Below are positions 7,999 to 52,084 of a DNA stretch of 64,000 bases, in pieces. Every line of letters begins with the position of its first letter. Position 1 is the first letter of the stretch. The DNA is taken from the NCBI RefSeq assembly GCF_045037415.1, contig NZ_CP173438.1; one strand, 5' to 3'. A program made the translations under genes and the position numbers. The notes under the pieces are model-generated. The model was not told where the DNA came from and made no database searches. It saw only the letters and a list, made by a program, of their open reading frames with translations. Source of the stretch: Escherichia coli. Lineage in GTDB: Bacteria; Pseudomonadota; Gammaproteobacteria; Enterobacterales; Enterobacteriaceae.

Positions 7999-9411
7999 AT
8001 GTCACTCAGTCGGCGTCAGTTCATTCAGGCATCGGGGATTGCACTTTGTGCAGGCGCTGTTCCCCTGAAGGCCAGCGCAGCCGGGCAACAGCAACCGCTA
8101 CCCGTTCCGCCGCTGCTTGAATCTCGCCGTGGGCAACCGCTGTTTATGACTGTACAACGTGCGCACTGGTCATTTACGCCAGGGACACGCGCGTCGGTTT
8201 GGGGAATCAATGGTCGTTACCTGGGGCCGACTATCCGCGTCTGGAAGGGCGACGATGTTAAGCTTATTTACAGCAACCGCCTGACAGAAAATGTCTCAAT
8301 GACGGTGGCCGGGCTACAGGTACCTGGCCCGCTGATGGGCGGTCCGGCACGGATGATGTCGCCAAACGCTGACTGGGCACCCGTACTGCCCATTCGCCAG
8401 AACGCAGCTACTCTGTGGTATCACGCCAATACTCCCAACCGCACGGCTCAGCAGGTCTATAACGGCCTTGCCGGAATGTGGCTGGTGGAAGATGAAGTCA
8501 GTAAATCGCTGCCTATCCCCAACCATTATGGTGTGGATGATTTTCCTGTCATTATTCAGGATAAACGGCTGGATAACTTTGGTACGCCAGAATATAACGA
8601 ACCTGGAAGCGGCGGCTTTGTTGGCGATACGCTACTGGTTAACGGTGTACAAAGCCCGTACGTTGAAGTCTCGCGTGGCTGGGTGCGCTTGCGTCTGTTG
8701 AACGCGTCGAACTCTCGTCGCTATCAACTACAGATGAGCGATGGTCGCCCGTTACATGTGATTTCTGGCGATCAGGGATTCCTGCCCGCTCCTGTATCGG
8801 TGAAGCAACTTTCGCTGGCACCGGGCGAGCGTCGTGAGATTCTGGTGGATATGAGCAACGGTGATGAAGTGTCGATTACCTGTGGCGAAGCGGCGAGCAT
8901 TGTTGATCGTATTCGTGGCTTCTTTGAGCCATCCAGCATTCTGGTTTCTACGCTGGTGCTAACGCTGCGCCCAACCGGCCTTCTGCCGCTGGTCACAGAC
9001 AGTCTTCCGATGCGCTTGCTGCCAACTGAAATCATGGCCGGTTCGCCGATTCGAAGTCGTGATATCAGTCTGGGTGATGACCCGGGGATTAATGGGCAGT
9101 TGTGGGACGTCAACCGTATTGATGTTACTGCGCAGCAAGGAACGTGGGAACGCTGGACGGTGCGCGCGGACGAGCCGCAAGCGTTCCATATTGAAGGCGT
9201 GATGTTCCAGATCCGTAACGTGAATGGCGCGATGCCGTTCCCGGAAGACAGAGGCTGGAAAGATACCGTTTGGGTTGACGGACAAGTGGAGCTGCTTGTT
9301 TATTTCGGTCAGCCTTCCTGGGCGCACTTCCCGTTCTACTTCAACAGTCAGACGCTGGAAATGGCGGACCGTGGCTCGATTGGGCAACTGTTGGTCAATC
9401 CGGTACCGTAA
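7999..9411 (+). CDS. ftsP: Cell division protein FtsP (SufI), multicopper-oxidase fold, Tat-exported
   Basis: 470-aa ORF with twin-arginine signal MSLSRRQFIQASGIALCAGAVPLKASA. Confidence 0.95.
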   Translation: MSLSRRQFIQASGIALCAGAVPLKASAAGQQQPLPVPPLLESRRGQPLFMTVQRAHWSFTPGTRASVWGINGRYLGPTIRVWKGDDVKLIYSNRLTENVSMTVAGLQVPGPLMGGPARMMSPNADWAPVLPIRQNAATLWYHANTPNRTAQQVYNGLAGMWLVEDEVSKSLPIPNHYGVDDFPVIIQDKRLDNFGTPEYNEPGSGGFVGDTLLVNGVQSPYVEVSRGWVRLRLLNASNSRRYQLQMSDGRPLHVISGDQGFLPAPVSVKQLSLAPGERREILVDMSNGDEVSITCGEAASIVDRIRGFFEPSSILVSTLVLTLRPTGLLPLVTDSLPMRLLPTEIMAGSPIRSRDISLGDDPGINGQLWDVNRIDVTAQQGTWERWTVRADEPQAFHIEGVMFQIRNVNGAMPFPEDRGWKDTVWVDGQVELLVYFGQPSWAHFPFYFNSQTLEMADRGSIGQLLVNPVP

Positions 9412-9422
9412 TGGACCAATTC

Positions 9423-9448
9423 AATGCCCCACAGAGTGGTGGGGCATT
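9423..9448 (+). terminator. Stem-loop immediately downstream of ftsP (putative terminator)
   Basis: AATGCCCCAC-AGAGTG-GTGGGGCATT, perfect 10-bp inverted repeat 12 nt after the ftsP stop; no strong T-run follows. Confidence 0.5.
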
Positions 9449-9481
9449 GAAAATTACTCAGTATGCAGTCTTCATTGTGTA

Positions 9482-10786
9482 TCAGGTCGAAAATAATCCT
9501 GGCAGCATCAGACTAAGCTGCGGGAAATAACAAATAATTGCCATTACTACAAACAATGCCAGAAACATCGGCAGTAATGGTTTTATTGCCCTGTCGATAC
9601 TGACCTTACCAATGCTGCATCCCACAAACAGAATGGTGCCGACAGGTGGTGTGCAAAGGCCAATGGTTAAGTTGAAAACCATAATGATGCCGAAGTGAAT
9701 CGGATCAATCCCCAGATGCTGGGCGATCGGCAGGAAAATAGGTGTAAATATCAGGATCGCCGGCGTGATATCCATAAAGGTACCAACGATCAACAGAATG
9801 ATATTGATAATAAACAGAATGACCCATTTGTTATCCGAAACGCGGGTAATCAGTTCGTTGATCAACTCAGGAACATCAGCATTCGTCATGGCCCATGACA
9901 TCCCCATCGAGCAGCCTACCAGTAACAGAACAATTGAACTGGTTACTACCGAATCTAACAGAATATCATTGAGCTTCTTAAGAGTGATTTCCCGGTAAAT
10001 CATCGCCAGGGCTAAACTATAAATTACCGCAATTGCCGATGCTTCTGTAGGCGTAAATACCCCCGCGATAATACCGCCAATAATGATAAAAATAAGCATC
10101 AGGCTAGGAATTGATTCGCGGAATACCTGTAAAAACTGACGGTAATTAATGCGCTCGGCCACCGGATAATGGTGACGTCGGGCATAAAGTGCAGCTACAA
10201 ACATTAAGGCAACAGCGGTGAGGATGCCCGGCAGATATCCAGCTAAGAACAACGCAGCGACAGAAGTCCCGCCACTGGCAAGGGAATAAACAATCAACAC
10301 ATTGCTCGGTGGGATCATCAGGCCAATGGGGGCAGAGGCAATATTAACCGCTGCTGAAAACGCCGGATCATATCCCTCTTTTTCTTGCAGTGGTGACATA
10401 ATCCCACCTACCGCGGCGGCTGACGCAACGGCTGAACCTGAAATCGCACCAAACAGTGTATTCGCGAGGATATTACAATGAGCCAGTGAGCCAGGAAGAC
10501 GCCCAACTAATGCTTGCGCCAGGTTAACCAGTCGTCTGGCTATACCACCGGTATTCATAATGTTTCCGGCTAACACGAAGAAGGGAATGGCTAATAGCGT
10601 AAAGCCATCCAGCCCCACAGTCATCTTTTGCGAAATCACAGAAATGGCGGCATCGGGTGGTAAGGCAGTAATAATAGATAACAGCGAAGAAAGACCAATC
10701 GCAAAAGTAATTGGCACACCTATTGCCAGCATGACGGCAAAACTGCCAAATAAAATTAAGACGGGGTAGATATATTCAAAGTCCAT
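9482..10786 (-). CDS. TRAP transporter large permease (DctM family)
   Basis: Track ORF 9482..10828 starts at TTG; preferred start is ATG at 10786 (MDFEYIYPVLILFG...), preceded by GAGGG. Polytopic hydrophobic protein typical of DctM. Confidence 0.85.
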   Translation of the reverse strand: MDFEYIYPVLILFGSFAVMLAIGVPITFAIGLSSLLSIITALPPDAAISVISQKMTVGLDGFTLLAIPFFVLAGNIMNTGGIARRLVNLAQALVGRLPGSLAHCNILANTLFGAISGSAVASAAAVGGIMSPLQEKEGYDPAFSAAVNIASAPIGLMIPPSNVLIVYSLASGGTSVAALFLAGYLPGILTAVALMFVAALYARRHHYPVAERINYRQFLQVFRESIPSLMLIFIIIGGIIAGVFTPTEASAIAVIYSLALAMIYREITLKKLNDILLDSVVTSSIVLLLVGCSMGMSWAMTNADVPELINELITRVSDNKWVILFIINIILLIVGTFMDITPAILIFTPIFLPIAQHLGIDPIHFGIIMVFNLTIGLCTPPVGTILFVGCSIGKVSIDRAIKPLLPMFLALFVVMAIICYFPQLSLMLPGLFST

Positions 10787-10796
10787 ATTTCCCTCG

Positions 10797-11279
10797 TTAA
10801 TGAAAATTCCGTTTACGATAGTTGTCAATAATATTCATTACTGAATACCAGACCAGAATAAGCCCACTGACAGGCATAACCCAATATACTTTATCCATTG
10901 GCCATTTTAATACTGGAGAGATTTGTCCAACATGTTGTGCTTTTTCAACAACAATATTCCCGCCATAGATCATGAAAATAACCGCAAAGACCGTAATAAT
11001 AATTTGGATAAAACTGTCAAGCGTCAGAACAGATGCAGCCGGAAGTTTTTGAGCCAACAAATCAATGGCCAGATGTTTTTTTAACCCCGCAGTATATACA
11101 CCGCCAAGTAAAATCATCCACATAAATAAAATCTGGGTGAACTCATCAAGCACAGTGCTGGGAGCGTTAAAAATAAAACGTGCAATAACTTGCCAGGTTA
11201 CGCAGAACACCATAATGGCGAGAATAATGCAGCAACATCCGGCAAGGATCTTATTAAGAATATGAGTGAGTGTTCGCAT
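10797..11279 (-). CDS. TRAP transporter small permease (DctQ family)
   Basis: 160-aa, 4-TM-like protein immediately upstream of the large permease, the canonical Q-M order. Confidence 0.8.
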   Translation of the reverse strand: MRTLTHILNKILAGCCCIILAIMVFCVTWQVIARFIFNAPSTVLDEFTQILFMWMILLGGVYTAGLKKHLAIDLLAQKLPAASVLTLDSFIQIIITVFAVIFMIYGGNIVVEKAQHVGQISPVLKWPMDKVYWVMPVSGLILVWYSVMNIIDNYRKRNFH

Positions 11280-11320
11280 AAGTCTTCCATGAAAAGGCAG
11301 GAATTACCTGCCCATTAGGG

Positions 11321-12304
11321 TTACATACTTTCTACTAGCTCAAGGTTTTTGGCTGATTGTGCATCTTTCGCCTTGAATTCATCGTATAACGGTTTGACGC
11401 GTTCTTTGAAAGCGGATTTATCAACATCAACAACTGTTGCGTTCATCCCTTTCATTTTGTCGTAGGCTTCTTTTTCAGCCGCAGGCCAGATGACGTCCTT
11501 CATCTGCATCATTGACTCATCGGCTGCTTTTAATAATGCCGTGCGCTCTTTATCACCAAGTTTATTTAACACGTCGGTGCTGATAATTAACACATCAGGT
11601 ACCATGGTGTGTTCATCACGTGAATAGACTTTTGCGACTTCGGCGTGACGCATATCGGCATAGACAACGGTATTGTTCTCTCCGCCATCAACCACTCCTT
11701 GCTGAAGTGCGGTGTAGAGTTCGCCTTGCGCCATCGGGGTAGCGACACCACCGAGTGCTTTCATCATTGCAATGGCGCTGGGGCTTTGTTGAACCCTGAT
11801 TTTCATTCCCGCTAAATCTTCAGGTTTTGTAATCGGTTTATTGGAATAAAAACTTCTCGCACCGCCGTCATAGTACGTAATACCAACAAAACCTTTGCTT
11901 TCTGATGAATTAAGTATTTTTTTACCTAAATCACTTTGCAGAACACGATAATAGTGATCACGGTCGCGGAATAAGAACGGCAGACTGAAAAGGCTGTAAT
12001 CCGGAGCAAATGATTCTAGTGATGCAGCATTAACCTTAACCATCTGTAATGCACCGGAGTTCATTAATTCCAGTGATTCACGCTCATTACCTAATGTCGC
12101 ATTTGGGTAAATGCGAATAACTAATTCACCATTAGAATACTCTTTGGTTTTATCCGCTAAATAGCTTAATGCTTTATGGACAGCATGGCTTTTATCCTGA
12201 TTATGACTCAGTTTTAATGTTGTTTTTGCCAGTGTGGTATTAGATATTAATAAACAACTGGTTAACAGCATAAGCGATGCCGTCAGAGGACGAAGTGCTT
12301 TCAT
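11321..12304 (-). CDS. TRAP transporter substrate-binding protein (DctP family)
   Basis: 327-aa ORF with signal peptide MKALRPLTASLMLLTSCLLISNTTLA; DctP-like size and position ahead of the Q and M genes. Confidence 0.82.
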   Translation of the reverse strand: MKALRPLTASLMLLTSCLLISNTTLAKTTLKLSHNQDKSHAVHKALSYLADKTKEYSNGELVIRIYPNATLGNERESLELMNSGALQMVKVNAASLESFAPDYSLFSLPFLFRDRDHYYRVLQSDLGKKILNSSESKGFVGITYYDGGARSFYSNKPITKPEDLAGMKIRVQQSPSAIAMMKALGGVATPMAQGELYTALQQGVVDGGENNTVVYADMRHAEVAKVYSRDEHTMVPDVLIISTDVLNKLGDKERTALLKAADESMMQMKDVIWPAAEKEAYDKMKGMNATVVDVDKSAFKERVKPLYDEFKAKDAQSAKNLELVESM

Positions 12305-12376
12305 ATCCTGCTCCTGGTTAATATAACAGAAACGATAAATACAGCGCTTTTCTATCGTTATAATAAAAAATAGTGA

Positions 12377-13387
12377 TTAATTCTCTGCCAGATAATGGAA
12401 TATTCCTGCCGGAACCGGAATACCTTCCTGTTGGCATTTTTCTTTGTAGTGCATTTGCGGATCGTTCGGCGCTAACACTTTTTCGACACCAGGAGCCGGT
12501 TTAACGGCATGCAGCTCCGTGACCATTTTCGCCATAGTTTTTGCAAAAACAGGATTGCCGAGCTTTTTCGGATCGATGGCAATAACCAAACTTGCCAGCT
12601 TACGCATCTTGTCATAATCACCATACATGCGAACAATATGGTTGCCAAAATTCGCATTCATCAGCACGCCAGTCAGTGCATCAATAGCCAGTGCAATGCC
12701 TGAACCTTTGTGTTGGCCGAAAGGTAGCAGGTTTTCAATCTTATACGGATCAGTGGTGCCATAACCGTTTTTATCTATCGCCAGTCCTTCACCAATATGT
12801 TTTCCGGTTTCCTTTGCATGAAGTATTTTGCCGAAAGCCGTGGCACTGGTCGCCATATCAACAATCATCGGATGGCTGTTTTCCACCGGGAAACCAAAGG
12901 CGATGGGGTTAGTTCCCAAAAAGCGCTCGGCGCCGCCATGGGGAGCCACACAGGTATCGGTTTGCGTCATTACGATAGCAACCAACCCTTTGTTGGTGAT
13001 CATCTCTGCAAAATAAGATAACGCACCACAGTGAGACGTGTTTTTAACGCTAACAAAACCGAGACCCTCTTGCTGGGCCAGTTTAATAGCGTGCTCAGTG
13101 GCGCTAATTAATGCGGAATGCCCCATTCCGTCGTCAGAGTCGAGAATGGCCACTGACGGTGAAATTTGCTCAATGCTAAACTGCGGGGCTTTATTTAACC
13201 CTCCGGCAGCAAGGCGGGTGCAATAATGTTCGACACGCATAACACCATGTGAATGCACACCGGTAATATCGGCATGTACTAAAACATCTGTCACCTGTTG
13301 TGTGGTGTCGGTATCCAGCCCGGCGGTATGTAATTTGTGGTGCACCAGTGATTTTAAATTTTCTTCACTGACATAAACAGTTGTCAT
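12377..13387 (-). CDS. Ldh_2 family (malate/L-lactate/2,3-diketogulonate-type) NAD(P)H-dependent oxidoreductase
   Basis: 336-aa ORF with the Ldh_2 motifs SHGV.R, GTNPIAFG, VDMATSA, HKGSG; resembles YiaK/AllD-type enzymes. Confidence 0.75.
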   Translation of the reverse strand: MTTVYVSEENLKSLVHHKLHTAGLDTDTTQQVTDVLVHADITGVHSHGVMRVEHYCTRLAAGGLNKAPQFSIEQISPSVAILDSDDGMGHSALISATEHAIKLAQQEGLGFVSVKNTSHCGALSYFAEMITNKGLVAIVMTQTDTCVAPHGGAERFLGTNPIAFGFPVENSHPMIVDMATSATAFGKILHAKETGKHIGEGLAIDKNGYGTTDPYKIENLLPFGQHKGSGIALAIDALTGVLMNANFGNHIVRMYGDYDKMRKLASLVIAIDPKKLGNPVFAKTMAKMVTELHAVKPAPGVEKVLAPNDPQMHYKEKCQQEGIPVPAGIFHYLAEN

Positions 13388-13397
13388 ATTTGTTCCC

Positions 13398-14414
13398 TTA
13401 AAAAGTGATCACACCCTTGACCATATTTTTATTTTCTACAACGTTACGCTGGTAATCTTCGCCAACACTAAAGAAATTGAACGCCTGGTTTTTCATTAAA
13501 TTTTCGTGAATTTTATTGCTGCGCATCAGTTCAATCACCAACGCAAAATCTTCCCGTGTGGCATTGCGGCTGCTGAGTAACGTTGTCTCTTTTTTATGGA
13601 AGGTCGGATCGTCAATAACAAGTTCACCAATGTACAAACCGATGAAAACAATTTTGCCGCCATGACGAATAAGATTGACATCATGACTCATTGAAGCTTT
13701 ATTTCCCGTCGCATCCAGTACTACGCAAGCCAGTTCGCCTCCAAAGGCCTCACGAAGCGCGGCAATAAAATCTTCCTGTGTGGGATTGAAGGCATTAATC
13801 GCCAGATGATCCACAACGTGCTGGCGACGTTGACAGTCAATATCAGCAACAACAACATGTGCCCCTTTAGCCCGGGCGATGGCTGCGGTAGCCAGACCGA
13901 TTGGCCCAGCGCCAATCACCAGTACGTTTTGTTCAGCCTTGATCTCTGCCCGACGAACGGCATGTGCACCAATGGCGAAACATTCAACCAATGCTCCGGC
14001 ACTGTCGCTGACCTCGTCAGGGAGAGGCACAAGGTTGTCTTCACGTACCGCAAGGTACTCACTAAAACCCCCATCCTGATGCACGCCATACAGCGAAACA
14101 CGTTCGCAGCAGTTCGTTTTCTCTTCCCGACAGGCTGCGCACTCGCCACACGGAATGCATGGGATGACGGAATAGCGCTGGCCTGATTGTGCTGTTTGGC
14201 ACTGGCTGCCTCGCGAAACCGCTTCGGCGCATATTTCATGACCTAATACACGTGGGTAGCTAAAAAAAGGCTGTCTGCCGGCAAAAGCGTGAATATCAGT
14301 ACCACAAATACCCACAGCTTTTATTTTTAACAGCACTTCATTATCTGCTGGTGTGGGAATATCCTTTTCCACATATTCCATAACGCCAGGCTGCTGACAA
14401 ATTAATGTTTTCAT
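13398..14414 (-). CDS. Zinc-dependent medium-chain alcohol/polyol dehydrogenase
   Basis: 338-aa ORF with GHE and cysteine-cluster zinc motifs (CGTDIH, ...CGECAAC...) and Rossmann GAGPIG; start ATG overlaps the upstream stop (ATGA). Confidence 0.8.
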   Translation of the reverse strand: MKTLICQQPGVMEYVEKDIPTPADNEVLLKIKAVGICGTDIHAFAGRQPFFSYPRVLGHEICAEAVSRGSQCQTAQSGQRYSVIPCIPCGECAACREEKTNCCERVSLYGVHQDGGFSEYLAVREDNLVPLPDEVSDSAGALVECFAIGAHAVRRAEIKAEQNVLVIGAGPIGLATAAIARAKGAHVVVADIDCQRRQHVVDHLAINAFNPTQEDFIAALREAFGGELACVVLDATGNKASMSHDVNLIRHGGKIVFIGLYIGELVIDDPTFHKKETTLLSSRNATREDFALVIELMRSNKIHENLMKNQAFNFFSVGEDYQRNVVENKNMVKGVITF

Positions 14415-15883
14415 TTCTGCTCATCCGATAATAATTGGCTGATGGTGGCCTTGATGCCTTTGTTTTTTATATTTGCAAAGGCGATTTTTATTTCATTTAT
14501 AAATGGCTGATGGTTGCTTAAATCACCAAATATGGCGCTAAGGTGCAGTAATGCGAGCGCCTGTTGCCATGCGTCTTGTTGTTCCTTTATTAGCGCCTGA
14601 AATTGTTCATTCATTGGATCCGCGACAGACTGGCTTTTCTCAACAGCTTCAATGACATAATGCAACCAACCAGCAACGAGCAGTGACAGAACAGCATTGT
14701 TTTGTTTTTGCTGATGCAATTTCAGCCAGGGCGTCAGCGCACGCTGGGGAAGCTTTTGTGAACCGTCCATAGCGATTTGCCCGGTACGGTGTGCAACATT
14801 ACGGTTGCTAAAGCGTTCAATTAACAGGTCGGCGTATTCCTGGGCGTCGATATTTAAGTCTGGATTAAGTGTTCGGGCTTGTTCATTAATCATCAGTTGG
14901 CGGGTAATGGAACGAAAATCAGCGTCTTCCATGCATTGCCAGATAAATTCATAGCCAGCCAGTGAGCCGTTATAGGCCAGAAATGAATGGCCACCGTTTA
15001 ACATGCGTAACTTCATCTCTTCATAAGGCTGAACATTGCTGACAAACATCGCGCCTGCTTTATCCCATTGTGGTCGCCCATGCACAAAATTATCTTCAAT
15101 CACCCACTGACGAAATGATTCGCAGACGATCCCGCAGGGATCGGCATAACCGGTTTTAGTTTCCAGTAAGGCGAATTGCGATTCGGTCATTGCCGGAACA
15201 ATGCGATCGACCATCGTGCCTGGAAATGAGACATTTTCTTCGATCCACTGAGCCAGGGGCTGGTCCAGTTGTCGGGCAAAACCGAGAACGGCATTTCGCG
15301 TCAGATGCCCATTGTCTGGCAAGTTGTCGCAGGAGAGCACGCTAAAAGCGGCGAGCCCTGCCGCTTTACGTTGTTGCAAAGCACAGACGATCAAGCCAAT
15401 AGCCGACTGAGGCGCATCCGGGTTTTGTAGATCGTGTTTGATTAATCCATTGGTGAGATCAAGCGATCGCGTTTGCGAATCGAGACAATAGCCTTTCTCG
15501 GTGATGGTTAATGAAACGATTTTTACCTGAGGTTCAGTCAATTTCTGGATTGCTGCGGCAATGCCATCCACGGGGGTATGAATACCGCCAGTTACCGAAC
15601 GCACAAGGCGTGAGGTAGATTGCGATGCAGATGTTTCCACAACCGAAAACAGCCCATTTTGCGCATTTAAGTTTTCGATCAGTTGAGCATCACCAAACAG
15701 GTTGATCTCAAAGATCCCCCAGTGGGTGTCAGAAAGCTGATTAGTGAGATCCGTGTAGACAGCCTGGTGTCCGCGATGAAAAGCGCCAAAACCAATATGG
15801 ACAATATCTGCCTGTAACCCGCCCCGAGGCCAGGTGGTTACCTGATCATAGTGGGCGGCATCGATACTTTCGTTCCCTGACAT
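14411..15883 (-). CDS. Mannitol-dehydrogenase-family oxidoreductase (UxuB/UxaB-like mannonate/fructuronate-type)
   Basis: Track ORF 14411..15919 starts at TTG; preferred start is ATG at 15883 (MSGNES...) preceded by AGGAG. Strongly UxuB-like blocks: GFGAFHRGHQ, SLTITEKGY, SCDNLPDNG, TMVDRIVP, KLRMLNGGHS, QIAMDGSQKLPQR. Confidence 0.85.
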   Translation of the reverse strand: MSGNESIDAAHYDQVTTWPRGGLQADIVHIGFGAFHRGHQAVYTDLTNQLSDTHWGIFEINLFGDAQLIENLNAQNGLFSVVETSASQSTSRLVRSVTGGIHTPVDGIAAAIQKLTEPQVKIVSLTITEKGYCLDSQTRSLDLTNGLIKHDLQNPDAPQSAIGLIVCALQQRKAAGLAAFSVLSCDNLPDNGHLTRNAVLGFARQLDQPLAQWIEENVSFPGTMVDRIVPAMTESQFALLETKTGYADPCGIVCESFRQWVIEDNFVHGRPQWDKAGAMFVSNVQPYEEMKLRMLNGGHSFLAYNGSLAGYEFIWQCMEDADFRSITRQLMINEQARTLNPDLNIDAQEYADLLIERFSNRNVAHRTGQIAMDGSQKLPQRALTPWLKLHQQKQNNAVLSLLVAGWLHYVIEAVEKSQSVADPMNEQFQALIKEQQDAWQQALALLHLSAIFGDLSNHQPFINEIKIAFANIKNKGIKATISQLLSDEQK

Positions 15884-16205
15884 TATGCTCTTACTCCTGG
15901 TGGCTTGTGTGTATACCAATTTACATAATTCATTAGACCAAAAACAGAGAGATGCATCACGCTTGCAGAGAAAGGTAAAAGTACGAAACAGAACAACAAG
16001 GCGTTATTTATATCTGTATCAATGAGTTATATGAATAAAATGAAAGGAAAGTTTTTTAGAGGTCAGTTTTTAGGATAATTGCCGCTAATCTAAGATATCT
16101 GATGATAGTCGATTTATTAGACCAATTAAAAAGAGAGCGTGTACCAGTGGAGGGCGGAAGGCAGAGCCGGCGTTATTTTTTCCGCCAGCTCTGGACTAAT
16201 GAAGG

Positions 16206-16955
16206 TTAACGAGCGAAGAAAAAGTCATCAAAATCGCTGATGGAAGCGTCTTGTTTGAAGATTTTGATCAGTTCATTTTTGCTGTTTTCCAGATGTCTCC
16301 AGGACGCTTCCCTGGCGAGCTCTGAATCTTTCTGTTGCAGAGCCAGGAAAATAGCCCGGTGATCTTCCAGCCATTGCAGACGCAAATGCTTTTCATGCAG
16401 GTACTTGTAGTTAAGTTTCTTCCAGCGGGGGTTTTCTGTACGAACTGCCCGCCATAATTCAGCAGCTTGTTTGATGAGTACCCGATTTTGCGTCGCTTCG
16501 GCAATAATGCTATGAAATCGGTGATCCAGGTCTTCAAATTTATCACTTTCCGCAGCGATGGCTTTTTCCTGTAATCCAATGATTTTCTTCAACTCTTGTA
16601 ACTCGTTAAAGCTGATCTGGCTGGCAGCAAAACCGGTAATATTGCTCTCAATTACCTGACGTGCCTGTAACAGTTCAAACGGGCCAATTTCTGAATAGGG
16701 CATTAATGATTTCTGGTTGAGCTTATCGGTGGAGTCGACAAAGAAAATCCCTGACCCTTGCTTCACATTCAATACGCCTTTCAGTTCCAGCATAATGATG
16801 GCTTCACGAATGGTAGTTCGGCTGGTATTAAACCGCTCGCTCAGTTCACGTTCTGAAGGTAAGCGTTCTCCGGCCTTAAATACGCCTGAATACAGCAGCT
16901 CTTCAATCTGTAGACCAATATCGTAATAGCGGCGCTTTGTAATAACCTGTTCCAT
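16206..16955 (-). CDS. GntR/FadR-family transcriptional regulator
   Basis: 249-aa ORF with N-terminal GntR helix-turn-helix (LPSERELSERFNTSRTTIREAI) and an FCD-like C-terminal domain; sits upstream of the TRAP/dehydrogenase operon on the same strand. Confidence 0.8.
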   Translation of the reverse strand: MEQVITKRRYYDIGLQIEELLYSGVFKAGERLPSERELSERFNTSRTTIREAIIMLELKGVLNVKQGSGIFFVDSTDKLNQKSLMPYSEIGPFELLQARQVIESNITGFAASQISFNELQELKKIIGLQEKAIAAESDKFEDLDHRFHSIIAEATQNRVLIKQAAELWRAVRTENPRWKKLNYKYLHEKHLRLQWLEDHRAIFLALQQKDSELAREASWRHLENSKNELIKIFKQDASISDFDDFFFAR

Positions 16956-17206
16956 ACCTTGCCTTACTGTGGGTGTCCTCGGATAGCCGATCGACGTGCA
17001 ATATGATTTGAACGTTGCTGAGCGGCATAAATAGTAGCGGCAGTTGCCACGATACCGCCAGCCTTAAATGTGCTTGCCCAAGTCGGGCAGTGAAAAACCT
17101 CACCAGGGTATTTCGCCACCGTTCATCAACATCACTTCATTTCCGCGCGTGATACAGCGTATAATCCCCGGCCTTTGATTATTTTTTTACCATTTCTGGA
17201 AGCAAA

Positions 17207-20901: not shown

Positions 20902-21729
20902 TTAGCCGCCGAACTGGTCAGGATCGGGACCGAGACGCTTGCCCTGATCGAGTTTTGCAATTTCGCCAAGTTCGTCTTTGTCGAGACGGAAATCCCAGAC
21001 ATCAAAGTTTTCGACAATGCGTGAAGGTGTGACCGATTTTGGGATCACCACCAGGCCGCTATCCAGATGCCAGCGGATAACAATCTGCGCAGGGGTTTTG
21101 CCGTATTTATCTGCCAGATCGCGAATGACTTTCTGATCGAAAACGCCTTTCCCTCCTTGCGCTAATGGGCTCCAGGATTCGGTCTGGATTTTGTGTGTCG
21201 CGTTCCAGGCATGTAGCTGGCGTTGTTGCATCAGCGGGTGAAGTTCGATCTGGTTTATCACAGGCGTCACGCCAGTTTCATCAATCAGGCGTTGCAGGTG
21301 ATGGATCTGGAAGTTGCACACGCCGATGCTTTTGATTAATCCCTCTTTTTGCAATTCGATCATGCCTTTCCATGCTTTGACATAATGGTCGATAGCGGGA
21401 ACGGGCCAGTGCATTAAATAGAGGTCGATATAATCAAGCTGGAGTTTTTTCAGGCTGTCGAGCAGGGCTTCGCGGGGGCGCTTGTGGTCGTCGTTCCACA
21501 GCTTAGTGGTGATGAACAGTTCTTCTCTGTTGACTGAGGCATTTTTCAGGGCTTTGCCGACACCTTCTTCGTTCTTGTAGGCCGCGGCGGTATCAATCGA
21601 GCGATAACCCACTTCTAACGCTTTTTGAATGGCGGTGATTACTTCCTCATTACTTGCTTGCCAGACGCCCAGTCCCAGCTGGGGCATGACATTGCCATCC
21701 TGTAGCTTAATAACGGTTGGATTAGCCAT
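20902..21729 (-). CDS. dkgA: 2,5-diketo-D-gluconate reductase A / methylglyoxal reductase (aldo-keto reductase)
   Basis: 275-aa ORF MANPTVIKLQDGNVMPQLGLGVWQ... with AKR catalytic tetrad context. Confidence 0.95.
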   Translation of the reverse strand: MANPTVIKLQDGNVMPQLGLGVWQASNEEVITAIQKALEVGYRSIDTAAAYKNEEGVGKALKNASVNREELFITTKLWNDDHKRPREALLDSLKKLQLDYIDLYLMHWPVPAIDHYVKAWKGMIELQKEGLIKSIGVCNFQIHHLQRLIDETGVTPVINQIELHPLMQQRQLHAWNATHKIQTESWSPLAQGGKGVFDQKVIRDLADKYGKTPAQIVIRWHLDSGLVVIPKSVTPSRIVENFDVWDFRLDKDELGEIAKLDQGKRLGPDPDQFGG

Positions 21730-21833: not shown

Positions 21834-22997
21834 TTAGCGGGCGGCTTCGTATATACGGCGGCTGACATCCAGCGTAATGTCATGATTTTCGCCCAGTTGG
21901 GTCATGCCGTGCTCTTCCAGTTTTTTCAGCAAAGCCGGGATGGAGCTGCCGTCCAGACCGTAGTCGGAGAGGTGGGTCAGCACGCCTAATTGCTCAAAGA
22001 AATTGCGGGTTGCGGCAATCGCGGCGTCAATACGCTCATCGTCTGAACCTTCAGTGATGTTCCAGACGCGTTCAGCATATTGCAGCAGCTTAGCGCGCTT
22101 GGTATCGCGTTTTTCATTCCACAGTGCAGGCAGGACGATAGCCAGTGTTTGCGCGTGATCCAGACCGTGCATCGCAGTCAGTTCGTGGCCCAGCATATGC
22201 GTTGCCCAGTCCTGCGGTACGCCAGCGCCGATCAAACCGTTCAGCGCCTGAGTCGCCGCCCACATGACGTTGGCGCGCACATCGTAGTTTTCTGGCTCTT
22301 TCAGGGCTTTCGGACCATCTTCGATCAGCGTCAGCAAAATGCCTTCTGCGAAACGGTCCTGAATTTTGGCATCAACCGGTTTGGTAACATACTGTTCCAC
22401 GGTGTGTACAAAGGCGTCCACTACGCCGTTAGCCACCTGACGCGGCGGCAGGGTGTAGGTATAAACCGGATCGAGCACGGCAAATACGGGCTGAACATGG
22501 GCAGAATGGAACGCCTGCTTGTCGCCTGTGGTTTTACGGGAGATCACCGCGCCTGCGTTGGATTCTGAACCGGTTGCTGGCAGCGTCAGCACACAGCCCA
22601 TCGGGATGGCGCTTTTAATCTCTTTACCGCCCGTTTGCAGAATGTGCCACGGATCGATATTTTCCGGATAGTTAGCCGCTGCGGCGATAAATTTGGTGCC
22701 GTCCAGTACAGAACCGCCGCCAACCGCCAGCAGGAACGTCACTTTCTGTTCGCGAACCAGTTTCACGGCGTTCATCAGCGTTTCATAAGCCGGGTTTGGT
22801 TCAATACCGCCAAATTCCAGTACGTCCATGCCTTTCAGGGCATCCAGAACTTGATCGAGAACGCCGGTTTTTTTCACGCTGCCGCCGCCGTAGGTAATCA
22901 ATACGCGAGCATCGTGAGGAATTTGTTCGCGTAAACCAGCGATTGCGCCTTTACCAAACAGAATGCGGGTTGGGGTGTGCAGATTAAAGTTGTTCAT
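21834..22997 (-). CDS. yqhD: NADPH-dependent aldehyde reductase (iron-containing ADH family)
   Basis: Track ORF 21834..23021; preferred start is ATG at 22997 ([22 protein letters not shown]...), giving 387 aa. Confidence 0.95.
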
Positions 22998-23133
22998 TAC
23001 TTGCTCCCTTTGCTGGGTCAATATGAGGGCAGAGATCGGTCTGCCTGATGTTTTTCATTGTGGTCGCCAGCGCCGTACCTCTCAATGCTCATTTCTGCCA
23101 ATGTCTTGCCTATTTCTCCAGAGTGCTGGAGAA
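22998..23133. promoter_or_regulatory. Divergent yqhD / yqhC promoter region
   Basis: Intergenic gap between divergent genes; contains inverted repeats (GGCAGA-N6-TCTGCC at ~23025-23042, TCTCCAG-AGTG-CTGGAGA at 23115-23132). No binding sites verified. Confidence 0.5.
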
Positions 23134-44856: not shown

Positions 44857-45630
44857 ATGGACGCACTACAAACACAAACTGTTAATAGTACAACCGCGCC
44901 GCAGCCCAACTACATTCCGGGGCTGATTGCGGTGGTCGGGTGTGATGGCACCGGTAAATCCACACTGACCACCGACCTCGTGAAATCGCTGCAACAACAC
45001 TGGCAAACCGAGCGGCGCTATCTGGGGCTGCTCTCGGGCGAAGACGGCGACAAAATCAAACGATTGCCGTTGGTTGGCGTCTGGCTCGAAAGGCGACTGG
45101 CGGCCAAATCATCGAAAACCCAAAGCATGAAAACCCAAAGCATGAAAACCAAATCTCCAGCGCTATGGGCGGCGGTGATTATGTACTGCTTCTCGCTGCG
45201 AAGAATGGCGAATCTACGCAAGGTTCAGCGACTGGCGCAAAGTGGCGTTCTGGTGGTCAGCGATCGCTTCCCGCAGGCTGAAATTTCGGGCTTTTATTAT
45301 GACGGACCGGGGATCGGCGTCGAACGTGCGACCGGGAAAATCAGCATGTTTCTGGCGCAGCGCGAACGGCGTTTATACCAAAAAATGGCGCAATACCGTC
45401 CTGAATTAATCATTCGTTTGGGGATTGATATTGATACTGCCATCTCCCGCAAGCCTGACCATGACTATGCCGAGCTGCAGGACAAAATCGGCGTCATGTC
45501 GACGATTGGCTATAACGGCACAAAAATTCTTGAGATTGATTCCAGAGCGCCCTACAGCGAAGTGCTGGAACAGGCACAGAAGGCGGTTTCTCTGGTTGCC
45601 ATCGTTTCTGACCGCCGAAGTTTAACTTAA
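44857..45630 (+). CDS. yghR: P-loop kinase-like protein YghR (carries an internal 5-aa tandem repeat)
   Basis: 257-aa ORF MDALQTQTVNSTTAPQPNYIPGLIAVVGCDGTGKST...; SDRFPQ and SRKPDH motifs. Confidence 0.85.
   Translation: MDALQTQTVNSTTAPQPNYIPGLIAVVGCDGTGKSTLTTDLVKSLQQHWQTERRYLGLLSGEDGDKIKRLPLVGVWLERRLAAKSSKTQSMKTQSMKTKSPALWAAVIMYCFSLRRMANLRKVQRLAQSGVLVVSDRFPQAEISGFYYDGPGIGVERATGKISMFLAQRERRLYQKMAQYRPELIIRLGIDIDTAISRKPDHDYAELQDKIGVMSTIGYNGTKILEIDSRAPYSEVLEQAQKAVSLVAIVSDRRSLT
45115..45150 (+). repeat. In-frame 15-bp tandem duplication inside yghR
   Basis: AAAACCCAAAGCATG occurs twice in tandem, followed by a partial third copy (AAAACC), encoding ...KTQSMKTQSMKTKS... Confidence 0.9.
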
Positions 45631-45675
45631 GGCTGGCGGGATACTTTTTACTATCAACGATAAGGTCAGGCTGAA

Positions 45676-47025
45676 TTGGCGGGTTTTAACATCAAACATT
45701 GGTTTGCAGATGGCGCGTTTCGCACCATTATTCGCAATAGCGCCTGGTTAGGCTCCAGTAATGTCGTGAGCGCTTTACTGGGTCTGTTGGCGCTCTCGTG
45801 TGCCGGTAAAGGGATGACGCCCGCCATGTTTGGCGTACTGGTGATTGTACAATCGTACGCCAAGTCGATCAGCGATTTTATTAAGTTTCAGATATGGCAG
45901 CTGGTGGTTCAGTACGGAACACCAGCATTAACCAACAATAATCCGCAGCAATTCCGCAATGTCGTCTCATTTTCCTTCTCGCTGGATATCGTCAGCGGCG
46001 CGGTGGCGATTGTCGGCGGCATTGCCTTACTCCCTTTTCTTTCCCATTCATTAGGTCTGGATGACCAAAGCTTTTGGCTGGCAGCGCTGTATTGCACGCT
46101 CATTCCTTCAATGGCTTCCTCCACGCCGACCGGCATTCTGCGTGCGGTAGATCGCTTCGATCTAATTGCTGTACAGCAAGCGACGAAACCTTTTCTGCGC
46201 GCAGCGGGGAGCGTCGTAGCCTGGTATTTTGACTTTGGTTTTGCGGGTTTTGTTATTGCCTGGTACGTGTCGAATCTGGTTGGCGGCACCATGTACTGGT
46301 GGTTTGCCGCGCGCGAATTACGCCGCAGAAATATCCATAACGCCTTCAAATTGAATCTGTTTGAGTCTGCCCGACACATTAAAGGCGCGTGGAGTTTTGT
46401 CTGGTCAACCAACATTGCCCACTCCATCTGGTCGGCGCGTAACTCGTGCAGCACAGTGCTGGTGGGGATCGTGTTAGGACCCGCTGCCGCCGGGTTATTT
46501 AAAATCGCCATGACATTCTTCGACGCCGCCGGAACGCCAGCGGGTTTACTGGGCAAAAGTTTTTACCCAGAGGTGATGCGTTTAGATCCGCGCACCACCA
46601 GACCGTGGTTGTTAGGCGTGAAGTCAGGTTTACTGGCGGGCGGAATTGGTATTCTGGTGGCGCTCGCGGTGTTGATCGTCGGCAAGCCGCTTATTTCGCT
46701 GGTGTTTGGCGTTAAGTATCTCGAAGCGTATGACCTGATTCAGGTGATGCTGGGCGCAATTGTGATTTCGATGCTGGGCTTCCCACAGGAGTCATTGCTA
46801 TTGATGGCGGGAAAACAGCGCGCTTTTCTCGTGGCGCAAACCATCGCCTCAATCGGCTACATCGTATTGCTGTTCATGTTCTGTCATCTGTTTGGCGTGC
46901 TGGGAGCAGCGTTTGCTTATTTCGGTGGGCAATGTCTGGATGTGGTGCTCTCGTTAATTCCGACCTTAAAGGCATTTTTTCAGCGCCATTCCTTGCTTTA
47001 TAACGCAGCCGGAGAGAAATCCTGA
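45676..47025 (+). CDS. yghQ: MOP-superfamily (Wzx-like) polytopic membrane protein YghQ; start uncertain
   Basis: 449-aa track ORF beginning at TTG 45676 with AAGG 9 nt upstream; highly hydrophobic multi-TM protein. Stop overlaps the start of the next gene (TGATG). Confidence 0.75.
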   Translation: MAGFNIKHWFADGAFRTIIRNSAWLGSSNVVSALLGLLALSCAGKGMTPAMFGVLVIVQSYAKSISDFIKFQIWQLVVQYGTPALTNNNPQQFRNVVSFSFSLDIVSGAVAIVGGIALLPFLSHSLGLDDQSFWLAALYCTLIPSMASSTPTGILRAVDRFDLIAVQQATKPFLRAAGSVVAWYFDFGFAGFVIAWYVSNLVGGTMYWWFAARELRRRNIHNAFKLNLFESARHIKGAWSFVWSTNIAHSIWSARNSCSTVLVGIVLGPAAAGLFKIAMTFFDAAGTPAGLLGKSFYPEVMRLDPRTTRPWLLGVKSGLLAGGIGILVALAVLIVGKPLISLVFGVKYLEAYDLIQVMLGAIVISMLGFPQESLLLMAGKQRAFLVAQTIASIGYIVLLFMFCHLFGVLGAAFAYFGGQCLDVVLSLIPTLKAFFQRHSLLYNAAGEKS

Positions 47026-47849
47026 TGATGAGAAAATATTTCCCGCTTGAGGCGAGCGAGCGTTTATTTGTTGCAGTTGAAGAAGATGATGTCGTTGATG
47101 CACAGGTCAGTTTGCCGCCGACTATCGCACTAAGTTGTACCACCGAAATCATCCATGATAATTACGCGTTATGCCTGCAATTCTGGCTCAATGGCGTCAA
47201 TCGCCAGGAGTTACTGCGTTTAATATGCAAACAGGCCAAAGGCGATGAGCTGACTGCTGATGAGCGCAAACAATTTAAATACATGCGAGCGCGCTACAAG
47301 CACCTGCGTTTTGCGCAACGGCTGTATTTAAAGAAGCATCAGGCCGGATTTTTATTCGGCAAAACGACCGTTTTTTTGGGGCGTTTTCAGGACGGTTTTC
47401 GTAACGGTAAGAAAAATATTGTGTCGTATTACGGCAACTTGTTACGGGTTTATTTAAGCTCTCCGGTCTGGTCGTTGGTGAACTATTCATTACGCCATAG
47501 CCAGTTAGAAAGCGTAAGCGGTTTTATTGCCTATCGGCAAAAGCAAATGCATACCCTGAAAGAGATAATTGCCAAACCGCGACTCACCGGCAGGGAATTT
47601 CATGATGTGCGAAAAATCATCAGCCAGCAGGTTTCTTATTACGACACCTTAAGATCGCTTGATCCTGAAAATAAAGAGGCGTTACAGATTTCCCGCTTCC
47701 TCGCCGCCATTAATGGCCTGATGGGGGATAAACACGACGACATGGTGGCGGATGATATGGAAAACCGCCAGTCGTATGATGCACCGGTGGCGCTGGATAG
47801 CGATATTCGCCAGCGCTTAGAGCTGCTGATTTCGCGTTTTCCGCTATAA
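47025..47849 (+). CDS. Hypothetical soluble protein, no recognisable family
   Basis: 274-aa ORF MMRKYFPLEASERLFVAVEEDD...; coding assignment rests on length, coupling to yghQ (1-nt overlap) and operon context. Confidence 0.6.
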   Translation: MMRKYFPLEASERLFVAVEEDDVVDAQVSLPPTIALSCTTEIIHDNYALCLQFWLNGVNRQELLRLICKQAKGDELTADERKQFKYMRARYKHLRFAQRLYLKKHQAGFLFGKTTVFLGRFQDGFRNGKKNIVSYYGNLLRVYLSSPVWSLVNYSLRHSQLESVSGFIAYRQKQMHTLKEIIAKPRLTGREFHDVRKIISQQVSYYDTLRSLDPENKEALQISRFLAAINGLMGDKHDDMVADDMENRQSYDAPVALDSDIRQRLELLISRFPL

Positions 47850-47857
47850 CCGGAGCA

Positions 47858-48421
47858 ATGATGTCATCTCGTTTGATTATTGCGCTGATTATCATGCTCT
47901 TAGCCCAGGGTGTGCAGGCACACAATTTTGTCACTGGCAAAACGGTTACCCCCGTTTATATCCAGGAAGGCGGCGAGCTGCTTCTGAATAGCGACGACGA
48001 AATTCACTACCAAAAGTGGAACAGCACACAGCTGGCGGGAAAAGTCCGCATTATCCAGTATATCGCCGGGCGTAAGTCGGCGAAGAAAAAGAACTCACTG
48101 TTAATTAAAGCGGTTGAAGCGGCAAACTTTCCGCAGGATCGTTTTCAGCCCACCACCATTGTGAACACCGATGATGCCATCTTTGGTACTGGCTATTTTG
48201 TCGTTGGCAAAATCGAAAAAAATAAACGCCGCTATCCGTGGGCGCAATTCGTTATTGACGGCAATGGACTGGGACGCGTTGCCTGGCGGTTGCCGGAGCA
48301 GAGTTCAACCATTCTGGTGCTGAATAAAGACGGGCAAATTCAGTGGGCAAAGGACGGCAGCCTGACGCCGGAAGAGGTAGATCATGTCATTGCGCTGGCG
48401 CAGAAACTGATCAATGAATAA
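47858..48421 (+). CDS. YtfJ-family periplasmic protein
   Basis: 187-aa ORF with signal peptide MMSSRLIIALIIMLLAQGVQA and GGAG Shine-Dalgarno; body resembles my recollection of YtfJ (QKWNS..LAGKVR..QYIAGR, TTIVNTDDAI, LNKDG..QWAKDG.LTPEEV). Confidence 0.65.
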   Translation: MMSSRLIIALIIMLLAQGVQAHNFVTGKTVTPVYIQEGGELLLNSDDEIHYQKWNSTQLAGKVRIIQYIAGRKSAKKKNSLLIKAVEAANFPQDRFQPTTIVNTDDAIFGTGYFVVGKIEKNKRRYPWAQFVIDGNGLGRVAWRLPEQSSTILVLNKDGQIQWAKDGSLTPEEVDHVIALAQKLINE

Positions 48422-48451
48422 AAAATTCAAAGGATTGAGGGTGTTAGTGAG

Positions 48452-50598: not shown

Positions 50599-50632
50599 AC
50601 CCGCCGTGGCGCAACACCACAGCGGGCTCACA
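50599..50632. terminator. Stem-loop between the convergent LptG-like gene and the AOS-like gene
   Basis: CCCGCCGTGG-CGCAACA-CCACAGCGGG, imperfect 10-bp inverted repeat filling the 34-bp gap between two convergent stop codons. Confidence 0.45.
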
Positions 50633-52053: not shown

Positions 52054-52084
52054 AGAAACGTTAACACACCTTTAAACAAGACAA

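Follow-up and report, generated by a model that had tools for sequence, protein, structure and literature searches.

Three dehydrogenase genes in an accessory island

The stretch of DNA analyzed here (the window) comprises 64,000 nucleotides of an Escherichia coli chromosome (contig NZ_CP173438.1), and its positions 9400-17100 are matched with 100% identity in many isolates from humans and animals. Within it, the stop codon of ftsP and the promoter of ygiQ border a 7.7-kb accessory island (9413..17156), and our subject is the trio of dehydrogenase genes that lies in this island between a transcriptional regulator and a tripartite ATP-independent periplasmic (TRAP) transporter. In E. coli strains without the island, 59 bp replace positions 9413-17156, homology ending at 9412 and restarting at 17157. 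The GC content of the island is 45.3%, against 51-53% in the flanks, and the whole island was found in 1201 of 5426 complete E. coli genomes (~22%). It corresponds to "GR 21 ygiQ..ftsP" of PMC12928451, a region common to the extraintestinal pathogenic (ExPEC) and adherent-invasive (AIEC) E. coli strains BEN2908, APEC O1, IMT5155, RS218, IHE3034, 78-Pyelo, CFT073, and LF82. The region is already known, but so far it has been annotated by similarity alone (as "L-galactonate / fructuronate" enzymes). Its content is seven minus-strand genes arranged head to tail, listed here in the direction of transcription together with the intergenic region that follows the first of them:

16206..16955, minus strand: GntR/FCD transcriptional regulator (Pfam GntR and FCD), a UxuR/ExuR-like paralog upstream of the trio
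15884..16205, minus strand: putative intergenic control region, read from the sequence
14411..15883, minus strand: mannitol dehydrogenase family gene (mannitol-DH; Pfam Mannitol_dh and Mannitol_dh_C), 490 aa
13398..14414, minus strand: zinc-dependent medium-chain dehydrogenase gene (Zn-ADH; Pfam ADH_N and ADH_zinc_N), 338 aa
12377..13387, minus strand: Ldh_2 family gene (Pfam Ldh_2), 336 aa
11321..12304, minus strand: TRAP solute-binding protein of the DctP family (Pfam DctP, 9.5e-82)
10797..11279, minus strand: TRAP small membrane subunit DctQ (Pfam DctQ, 6.5e-27), annotated as TRAP small permease
9482..10786, minus strand: TRAP large membrane subunit DctM (Pfam DctM, 2.2e-125), start as annotated

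The initial annotation had described three consecutive dehydrogenases of different folds, tightly packed and with no dehydratase, kinase, or aldolase encoded nearby. The Pfam domains (Mannitol_dh, ADH_zinc_N, and Ldh_2) bear out the three folds, the sequence shows both the ATGA overlap (14411-14414) and the 10-bp gap (13388-13397), and no dehydratase, kinase, or aldolase gene occurs in the island, which ftsP and ygiQ directly bound. The open reading frame (ORF) of the mannitol-DH spans 14411-15919, and its annotated start is the ATG at 15883, with AGGAG just before it. Each of the three genes has a strong Pfam match that spans its full length. The trio is under purifying selection, with dN/dS values of 0.05-0.16 among the copies of E. 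coli, E. albertii, and E. whittamii. Decay of any of the three genes, which would have spoken against the joint role seen in the initial annotation, is ruled out by their full length, by these dN/dS values, and by the presence of the usual catalytic motifs (residues matched by eye).

Sequence affinities of the three enzymes

The mannitol-DH carries both domains of its family at full length (PF01232, E 5.4e-58; PF08125, E 8.1e-49). Its best relative in the Protein Data Bank (PDB) is YdfI (4im7, E 1.9e-140), and its identity to UxuB is 49% (PMC12928451). With the NCBIfam models it reaches 510 bits for fructuronate reductase, below the cutoff of 603, and 156 bits for tagaturonate reductase (cutoff, 359). 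The protein is a paralog within this family, with YdfI as its closest relative.

The Zn-ADH (ADH_N, E 1e-25; ADH_zinc_N, E 2e-21) shows, by eye, the motifs GICGTD and GHE and a four-cysteine cluster resembling the usual zinc ligands, as well as GxGxxG followed by an aspartate. Its identity is 56% to P0220, an E. coli protein of 340 aa that bears the name "galactonate oxidoreductase"; we take this protein to be LgoD/YjjN, the L-galactonate 5-dehydrogenase. In a neighbor-joining tree, the Zn-ADHs that accompany Ldh_2 orthologs (see below) form one clade, sister to P0220, with identities of 52-56%. An ortholog of LgoD would share its clade and the lgoR-lgoT context; the island enzyme falls in the sister clade, and its context is a TRAP transporter and two further dehydrogenases. 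The identity to YjjN has been given as 55.3% (PMC12928451). A sequence relationship with the enzyme of EC 1.1.1.389 was not found either, the E. coli protein being 24% identical to the Zn-ADH of a Maribacter agar cluster; this homolog, from an equivalent cluster, was used in place of the characterized 2-keto-3-deoxy-L-galactonate (L-KDGal) 5-dehydrogenase of Pseudoalteromonas atlantica.

The Ldh_2 domain of the third enzyme (PF02615, E 6.5e-108) covers residues 6-333, and S46-H47-G48 and R51, which we take as the catalytic motif of the family, are invariant across its orthologs. Its PDB matches are AllD (4e-77) and, far more weakly, YiaK (8e-22). The AllD models give 340.8 bits against a cutoff of 356 (NF011599) and 318.8 against 496.2 (TIGR03175), and the YiaK equivalog gives 126 bits against 316. 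Identity to AllD is ~40% (PMC12928451). A role as AllD (ureidoglycolate) is ruled out by the scores below both cutoffs and by the lack of all or gcl genes nearby, and a YiaK-type role on 2,3-diketo-L-gulonate by the YiaK scores. Overall, the three enzymes are paralogs of sugar-acid or 2-hydroxy-acid dehydrogenases, and none fits a curated family definition.

Three proteins of unusual make-up, fused or extended, were encountered: P0115 from E. coli (544 aa) combines DctM with Ldh_2, P0156 from a metagenome (482 aa) combines Zn-ADH with Ldh_2, and P0005 (456 aa) is an Ldh_2 variant. Deletions in the island, frameshifts, or artifacts of gene calling may lie behind them. A Zn-ADH-Ldh_2 fusion, if true, would back consecutive steps. 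Another pair of Ldh_2 and Zn-ADH genes, yjmC/yjmD, belongs to the hexuronate operon of Bacillus subtilis.

A conserved cassette in enteric and marine bacteria

Loci were found via the Ldh_2 protein, 36 of them from species-representative genomes and others by individual look-ups, and 40 nonredundant loci were counted (locus numbers below are those of this survey). Neighbors within 10 kb were classified by BLAST against a panel with Pfam or NCBIfam labels. Orthologs of Ldh_2 (53-82% identity in Salmonella, Klebsiella, Vibrio, Agarivorans, Marinomonas, and Pseudovibrio) are present in the enterics Salmonella, Klebsiella, Phytobacter, Budvicia, Leclercia, and Enterobacillus. Their occurrence in marine bacteria was unexpected: they were found in many agar and alga degraders, namely Vibrio agarivorans, V. 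agarilyticus, V. algivorus, Agarivorans, Aliagarivorans, Neiella, Marinomonas agarivorans, M. algicola, Alginatibacterium, and Pseudovibrio.

The Zn-ADH gene lies within 10 kb, and directly beside the Ldh_2 gene, in all 40 loci; the mannitol-DH gene is present in 39, and the order of the trio is mostly the same. Since the same three genes co-occur in 39 of 40 loci elsewhere, their juxtaposition in E. coli is nonrandom. A GntR/FCD regulator accompanies them in 31 loci, and regulator and trio together are a conserved, horizontally mobile cassette. A context in which the three homologs served unrelated substrates would have contradicted the multistep redox route for the TRAP substrate proposed in the initial annotation; the trio staying together across bacteria supports that route instead.

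The other neighbors are an enolase-superfamily gene (25 of 40 loci) resembling the cycloisomerase (ACI) of 3,6-anhydro-L-galactonate (AHGA), a PfkB kinase (23 loci), a TRAP transporter (18 loci), an Eda aldolase (17 loci), an aldehyde dehydrogenase resembling the 3,6-anhydro-L-galactose (AHG) dehydrogenase (AHGD; 16 loci), a DUF386 protein (14 loci), a major facilitator superfamily (MFS) transporter (13 loci), agarase or glycoside hydrolase family 117 (GH117)-like genes (12 loci), and KduI (8 loci). The association with ACI, AHGD, and agarase genes extends to 29 of the 40 loci; the E. coli Zn-ADH gene is beside neither ACI nor AHGD. In V. agarivorans, the ACI encoded three genes from the trio is nearly identical, with ~12 differences over 362 aa (828 bits), to PDB 5XD7, the crystallized 3,6-anhydro-alpha-L-galactonate cycloisomerase, and in Marinomonas, the aldehyde dehydrogenase right after the trio reaches 825 bits to PDB 6J75, used as the AHG dehydrogenase reference in PMC10163077. 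Several trio loci look self-contained: in Agarivorans, for instance, the AHGD, regulator, sugar porter, ACI, Eda, and PfkB genes face the trio and agarases, and in Vibrio sp. Hep-1b-8, Eda and PfkB face the trio, ACI, TRAP, and regulator. The best NCBIfam match of the PfkB kinases is the kinase of 2-keto-3-deoxygluconate (KDG) and KDGal, under its cutoff, and the Eda of V. agarivorans passes the cutoffs for Eda/2-keto-3-deoxy-6-phosphogluconate (KDPG) aldolase.

The placement of the cassette beside PfkB kinase and Eda genes supports the earlier suggestion that the module is incomplete in itself and feeds an existing pathway such as the hexuronate or Entner-Doudoroff route. The entry point can be refined: it is likely KDG itself, rather than mannonate or altronate, because self-contained loci hold the cassette, a kinase, and an aldolase without an aldonate dehydratase. 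UxuA was found in only 3 of 40 loci, always with an extra mannitol-DH. In five loci, no unassigned ORF of at least 340 aa was found within 8 kb; three of these five hold both the PfkB kinase and Eda, leaving no dehydration before the kinase, and the product of the trio would therefore already be a 3-deoxy acid there. The substrate is probably a 3-deoxy, L-configured acid such as L-KDGal, and no classical hexuronate or aldonate.

Proposed displacement of two enzymes in the agar sugar pathway

In the published pathway, 3,6-anhydro-L-galactose is oxidized to its acid, which the cycloisomerase opens to give L-KDGal, and oxidation at C5 and re-reduction then lead to KDG (PMC5943477, PMC10163077). 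A Zn medium-chain dehydrogenase (EC 1.1.1.389) performs the C5 oxidation, a KduD-type reductase (EC 1.1.1.127) performs the re-reduction, and KDG kinase and KDPG aldolase act next (PMC5943477, PMC10163077). The agar locus of Maribacter encodes a GH117-like protein, an IclR regulator, a Zn-ADH, a KduD-like short-chain dehydrogenase/reductase (SDR), a sulfatase, AHGD, and ACI. Its ACI and AHGD are orthologous to their counterparts in the trio loci (64-75% and 47-70% identity, respectively), and its Zn-ADH is just 24-32% identical to those of the trio. The Zn-ADH and SDR of Maribacter match the published L-KDGal 5-dehydrogenase and 2,5-diketo-3-deoxy-L-galactonate 5-reductase. No KduD-like SDR was found in the trio loci, except one in Budvicia aquatica. 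The cassette thus appears to replace the Zn-ADH and KduD pair that converts L-KDGal to KDG in Flavobacteria; since the frame of the pathway is orthologous and its middle is different, this would be a non-orthologous displacement.

The lower half of the AHG pathway of the type of Lee et al. 2014, found in P. atlantica T6c, Paraglaciecola hydrolytica, Aquimarina, and Maribacter, is among the closest known systems. The cassette fills the same slot beside orthologous ACI and AHGD and upstream of KDG kinase and KDPG aldolase, a net inversion of C5 by oxidation and then reduction is required in both, and both use one Zn medium-chain dehydrogenase. In contrast, the Zn-ADH of the cassette is not an ortholog (24-28% identity) but a sister of LgoD, the SDR is swapped for a member of the mannitol-DH family, and an Ldh_2 is always added; in the E. 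coli copy, moreover, the upstream enzymes have been lost and a TRAP importer has been acquired. A 2024 review (PMC11219438) says that the entry of L-KDGal into central metabolism "remains to be elucidated" for the Vibrio-type pathway (Vibrio sp. EJY3) and for E. coli. Our literature search retrieved no paper linking the cycloisomerase with enzymes of the mannitol-DH or Ldh families, and a broader search on KDGal, AHG, and Vibrio retrieved no assignment of the trio genes; presumed locus tags of Salmonella and CFT073 likewise yielded nothing on function. The link of the trio to the agar sugar pathway and the replacement of the Zn-ADH and KduD pair appear to be new.

Reduction of the cassette and choice of transporter

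The combination that marks an AHG cluster, an AHG dehydrogenase with an AHGA cycloisomerase, is missing from the E. coli island. The island is not an AHG cluster; it is a derivative of the lower module of such a cluster only. Other enteric loci show stages of reduction. In some Salmonella (L044), the speA-speB site holds the regulator, an intact ACI, the trio, DUF386, and an MFS transporter, and in Enteritidis-type Salmonella enterica three ACI fragments with 68-72% identity were found by tblastn between regulator and trio (L003:6348-6930). The cassette is being trimmed in some Salmonella serovars.

The type of transporter tracks the entry point of the pathway. Loci of the Agarivorans type, which hold AHGD, encode an MFS porter for neutral sugars, with homologs in Neiella and V. 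agarilyticus. The Budvicia locus, with ACI only, encodes an anion MFS resembling D-galactonate transporters, and Leclercia, Enterobacillus, and Salmonella L044 have a similarly placed MFS. TRAP transporters occur in E. coli, E. whittamii, and Klebsiella spallanzanii, which hold neither AHGD nor ACI; the E. albertii contig stops inside the TRAP genes. Transport by TRAP systems needs a carboxylate.

DUF386 is the YhcH/YiaL family, related to N-acetylneuraminate anomerase, and its gene follows that of Ldh_2 in Salmonella and other bacteria. Such a protein would be in keeping with a 2-keto-3-deoxy acid whose ring has to be opened. KduI-like genes are found beside the trio in L028, L031, L017, L023, L034-L036, and L039. 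The KduI of V. superstes (L028) reaches 401 bits, against an equivalog cutoff of 250, and in L028 and L031 KduI adjoins DUF386 and TRAP without ACI. The cassette may also serve the catabolism of unsaturated uronates (from alginate, pectin, or glycosaminoglycans) in place of KduD. Neither DUF386 nor KduI genes were found in the E. coli island.

A second Ldh_2 paralog, 66-67% identical to that of E. coli, was seen away from the trio in Vibrio sp. 10N.286.49.B1 and B3 (L015 and L019), as the last or third-from-last labeled ORF. It adjoins a gene for a GH117-like neoagarobiose hydrolase, with a LacY-like permease on its other side in L019, which suggests that an Ldh_2 activity is tied directly to anhydrogalactose metabolism.

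TRAP transporter and regulator of the island

DctP, DctQ, and DctM domains occur in consecutive genes after the trio and on the same strand, making up the three components of a TRAP system. DctM reaches 514 bits with the NCBIfam dctM model (cutoff, 268). The AlphaFold2 model of the binding protein (predicted local distance difference test score [pLDDT] of 94.5) superposes on TRAP binding proteins with template modeling (TM) scores of 0.87-0.95, and its best matches by sequence and fold are the Enzyme Function Initiative (EFI) TRAP proteins 4ovr, 4x8r, 4ln5, and 4mhf (30-38% identity). R150 and R170 are invariant in an alignment of 60 sequences and are candidates for the conserved carboxylate-binding arginine of TRAP proteins. 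The nearest relatives of the binding protein adjoin UxuA (54% identity), a Fucose_iso_C protein (50%), and GntK and Edd (46%), on contigs that are mostly short (2.7-6 kb) and not decisive for context. This places the protein in a clade for C6 sugar acids.

The regulator scores 193 bits with the UxuR and 185 bits with the ExuR model of NCBIfam, each under its cutoff. It is 79% identical to that of Salmonella and 62-65% identical to those of the agar clusters of Vibrio and Agarivorans, and by sequence it is orthologous to the regulators adjoining the trio in other bacteria. Many marine loci carry, upstream of their trio, one to several copies of a perfect palindrome, TTGGTnnACCAA, which has the shape of a FadR/GntR-type operator (seen in L002, L011, L020, L024, L028, L030, and L006). 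The E. coli control region holds degenerate, operator-like TTGGT-box sites and the ribosome-binding site of the first dehydrogenase gene. Directly after the stop codon of the regulator lies an inverted repeat, CAGAGCTGGCG...CGCCGGCTCTG, a possible terminator judged by eye rather than by a scan.

Proposed inversion of C5

The anatomy and intactness of the genes, the island, and the conserved cassette with its neighbors are observed; from them we infer every reaction, the ligand, and the inducer of the system. Our proposal, which we regard as evenly balanced between right and wrong, is that a six-carbon acid of L-galacto configuration, probably a 3-deoxy one, has its C5 inverted by the trio, and that the resulting KDG goes to the core enzymes KdgK and Eda. 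In agarolytic marine bacteria, the cassette would take L-KDGal, the product of the cycloisomerase. In E. coli, the TRAP transporter would bring the acid (L-KDGal or a close relative) in ready-made, and KDG would go to the products of chromosomal kdgK and eda. The same chemistry is proposed for E. coli because its enzymes (69-76% identical to those of Vibrio; 60% for mannitol-DH) and regulator are orthologous. The repressor would presumably respond to a pathway intermediate.

L-KDGal shares the C4/C5 configuration of L-galactonate, C5 of which is oxidized by LgoD, and inversion of C5 alone gives KDG. The stereochemistry fits L-KDGal as a substrate of the Zn-ADH. By analogy with their relatives, the LgoD-like Zn-ADH is proposed to oxidize the C5 hydroxyl of the L-form, and the UxuB/YdfI-like mannitol-DH to act as the C5 keto-reductase that yields the D-form. 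Ldh_2 would switch the same sugar acid back and forth between a keto and a hydroxy group at C2, which is the least certain step. In a first option, this would let the two other, aldonate-type enzymes act on a 3-deoxy-2-hydroxy intermediate, and L-KDGal would be converted to 3-deoxy-L-xylo-hexonate, the 5-keto acid, 3-deoxy-D-arabino-hexonate, and finally KDG, a redox-neutral route pulled by the kinase. In a second, Ldh_2 would be accessory, and L-KDGal would pass directly through 2,5-diketo-3-deoxygluconate to KDG. The ancestors of the Zn-ADH and the mannitol-DH act on aldonates with an L-configured 2-hydroxyl (L-galactonate/L-gulonate and fructuronate/mannonate); because of this ancestry, an L-specific 2-hydroxy-acid dehydrogenase such as Ldh_2 could shuttle between the 2-keto and 2-hydroxy forms, an option that we prefer, unproven as it is. 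The KduI genes in 8 loci fit the direct route, as KduI produces the 2,5-diketone intermediate. The KduI/KduD system, which turns 5-keto-4-deoxyuronate into KDG, has the same presumed intermediate and product; it differs in that KduD is an SDR, absent from the KduI-bearing trio loci, and in that the E. coli island has no KduI. The two routes are not separable computationally.

A wider scenario, which we consider rather doubtful, is that of an undescribed "reduce, epimerize, re-oxidize" route that avoids the reactive 2,5-diketone. In it, Ldh_2 would reduce the 2-keto group of L-KDGal, the LgoD-like and UxuB-like enzymes would invert C5 of the 3-deoxy-aldonate, and Ldh_2 would then oxidize C2 again to yield KDG. 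It would be the missing lower half of the AHG pathway of Vibrio, Agarivorans, and Marinomonas, and a cut-down form of it, carried by E. coli of the B2/ExPEC type, by E. albertii, and by some Klebsiella and Salmonella, would scavenge 2-keto-3-deoxy-L-acids that other microbes set free (e.g., from dietary agar or pectin).

Several points weigh against the proposed C5 inversion of L-KDGal or a close relative in E. coli. The substrate assignments would hold only as far as genomic context predicts function, and the transfer from the marine loci leans on the enzyme identities of 69-76% (mannitol-DH, 60%) and the orthologous regulator. The seven genes of the island include no AHGD, kinase, or aldolase, and tblastn across the window gave no match to, or remnant of, the cycloisomerase. 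Copies of the marine palindrome in the E. coli control region have two mismatches (TTGGTCTAATAA and TTGGTATACACA). Two dehydrogenases suffice to convert L-KDGal to KDG in Flavobacteria, and the third enzyme would be accounted for by the C2 shuttle proposed above. The binding protein and the TRAP proteins in other trio loci are not orthologs (~33-35% identity), and its relatives beside UxuA or GntK/Edd fit an aldonate or uronate ligand equally. Its best structural relatives are presumably hexuronate binders, an assignment to which we give little weight. Finally, the island is not required for the use of L-KDGal, which E. coli strains lacking it already consume (PMC11219438, PMC9706016).

Alternative substrates

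A simpler and serious alternative, although on the unlikely side in our judgment, is a second system for L-galactonate or L-gulonate. The TRAP transporter would import an L-aldonate, the Zn-ADH would convert it to D-tagaturonate or D-fructuronate, the UxuB-like enzyme would reduce this to D-altronate or D-mannonate, and chromosomal UxaA/UxuA, KdgK, and Eda would complete the route; Ldh_2 would first reduce a 2-keto-L-aldonate (e.g., 2-keto-L-gulonate) or be a passenger. The affinities of the Zn-ADH to the protein that we take as LgoD (56%) and of the mannitol-DH to YdfI and UxuB favor such a system, as do the UxuA genes beside the nearest relatives of the binding protein. UxuA and UxaA are encoded elsewhere in E. 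coli. It is also the function predicted for the island in PMC12928451, and the same two-enzyme logic with a TRAP transporter has been proven by experiment for L-gulonate in Haemophilus influenzae (PMC5788505). That system (GulPQM, GulD, UxuB, UxuA, KdgK, and KdgA; PMC5788505) shares with the island a Zn 5-dehydrogenase, a mannitol-DH family 5-reductase, and a UxuR-type regulator, and it likewise inverts C5 of an L-acid to give a D-acid entering the KDG route. However, its locus has UxuA, KdgK, and an aldolase and no Ldh_2, whereas the cassette of the E. coli island is usually without a dehydratase partner, and its binding protein (4PBQ) is a distant match to that of the island (E 1.8e-28).

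The orthologous cassettes argue against an L-aldonate substrate, as they come with a kinase and an aldolase and without an aldonate dehydratase, and they adjoin ACI, the product of which is already a 3-deoxy acid. An L-aldonate route would leave no necessary role for Ldh_2, which is kept wherever the Zn-ADH is found, and both the mannitol-DH and the AllD-like enzyme are below their family cutoffs. It would also duplicate the LgoD/UxaB and the cryptic RspB/YdfI routes of E. coli. The LgoR-LgoT-LgoD system (YjjM/L/N), with UxaB/UxaA, does provide the closest Zn-ADH paralog, a GntR/FCD regulator, and a hand-over to core hexuronate enzymes, but it uses an MFS transporter rather than TRAP, and LgoD stands alone and borrows UxaB, whereas the island has its own reductase and Ldh_2; the two Zn-ADHs are in separate clades. 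If the L-aldonate route were true, the finding would be one of ordinary metabolic redundancy.

A high-affinity importer of hexuronates with a redox bypass of uronate isomerase is improbable. D-Glucuronate or D-galacturonate would enter by the TRAP transporter, be reduced to L-gulonate or L-galactonate, and proceed via the 5-keto acid to D-mannonate or D-altronate. The UxuR/ExuR-like regulator and the KduI gene alongside the cassette in 8 loci fit this, as would the structures 4ovr, 4x8r, 4n8y, 4n91, and 4mhf, which are presumably complexes with glucuronate or galacturonate. The binding protein is, however, only 30-38% identical to its solved relatives, no Ldh_2 enzyme is known to reduce an aldehyde, E. 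coli already has ExuT/UxaC, and the association with ACI, AHGD, and agarase genes in 29 of 40 loci would be left unexplained.

The last alternative, that the three enzymes are mere neighbors acting on unrelated substrates or form a YiaK-type system for 2,3-diketo-L-gulonate (ascorbate breakdown), is close to refuted: an Ldh_2 with a TRAP transporter does recall yiaK-yiaMNO, and DUF386 (the YiaL family) follows Ldh_2 in Salmonella and others, but the synteny of the three genes in 39 of 40 loci spans gamma- and alphaproteobacteria, the ATGA overlap and 10-bp gap point to cotranslation, similarity to YiaK is weak (E 8e-22; 126 versus 316 bits), DctM scores 288 bits against the YiaN cutoff of 800, and no lyxK/sgb genes are nearby. 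The yiaK-yiaL-yiaMNO system of E. coli, which also joins Ldh_2 and TRAP for a keto sugar acid, differs further in that the island has no kinase, decarboxylase, epimerase, or DUF386 genes.

Other genes in the window

The genes dkgA (2,5-didehydrogluconate reductase) and yqhD (20902-21729 and 21834-23021) lie a few kilobases from the island. They are core genes, also present in strains without the island, and their nearness to a keto-sugar-acid cassette is probably coincidental. A second accessory-looking cluster occupies 44857-54684. In the record of an identical strain, it is annotated with hypothetical proteins, a lipopolysaccharide (LPS) biosynthesis protein, a YtfJ-family protein, extra LptF/LptG paralogs, a serine palmitoyltransferase, an acyl carrier protein, an NAD-dependent epimerase, and a fatty acyl-AMP ligase. 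This cluster could be a lipid or sphingolipid-like envelope module.

Significance

The cassette offers a testable candidate for the step called unresolved in 2024, from L-KDGal to a phosphorylatable sugar acid in agar degraders of the Vibrio type, which matters for the engineering of microbes that ferment red-seaweed sugars. If true, the replacement would be a clear case of non-orthologous displacement within an otherwise orthologous pathway, and it could give a first physiological role to the widespread pair of Ldh_2 and Zn-ADH genes. An island typical of extraintestinal pathogenic E. coli would be reread as a trimmed and re-plumbed catabolic cassette that it shares with marine bacteria, and the strains that carry it would then be expected to occupy a specific nutrient niche.

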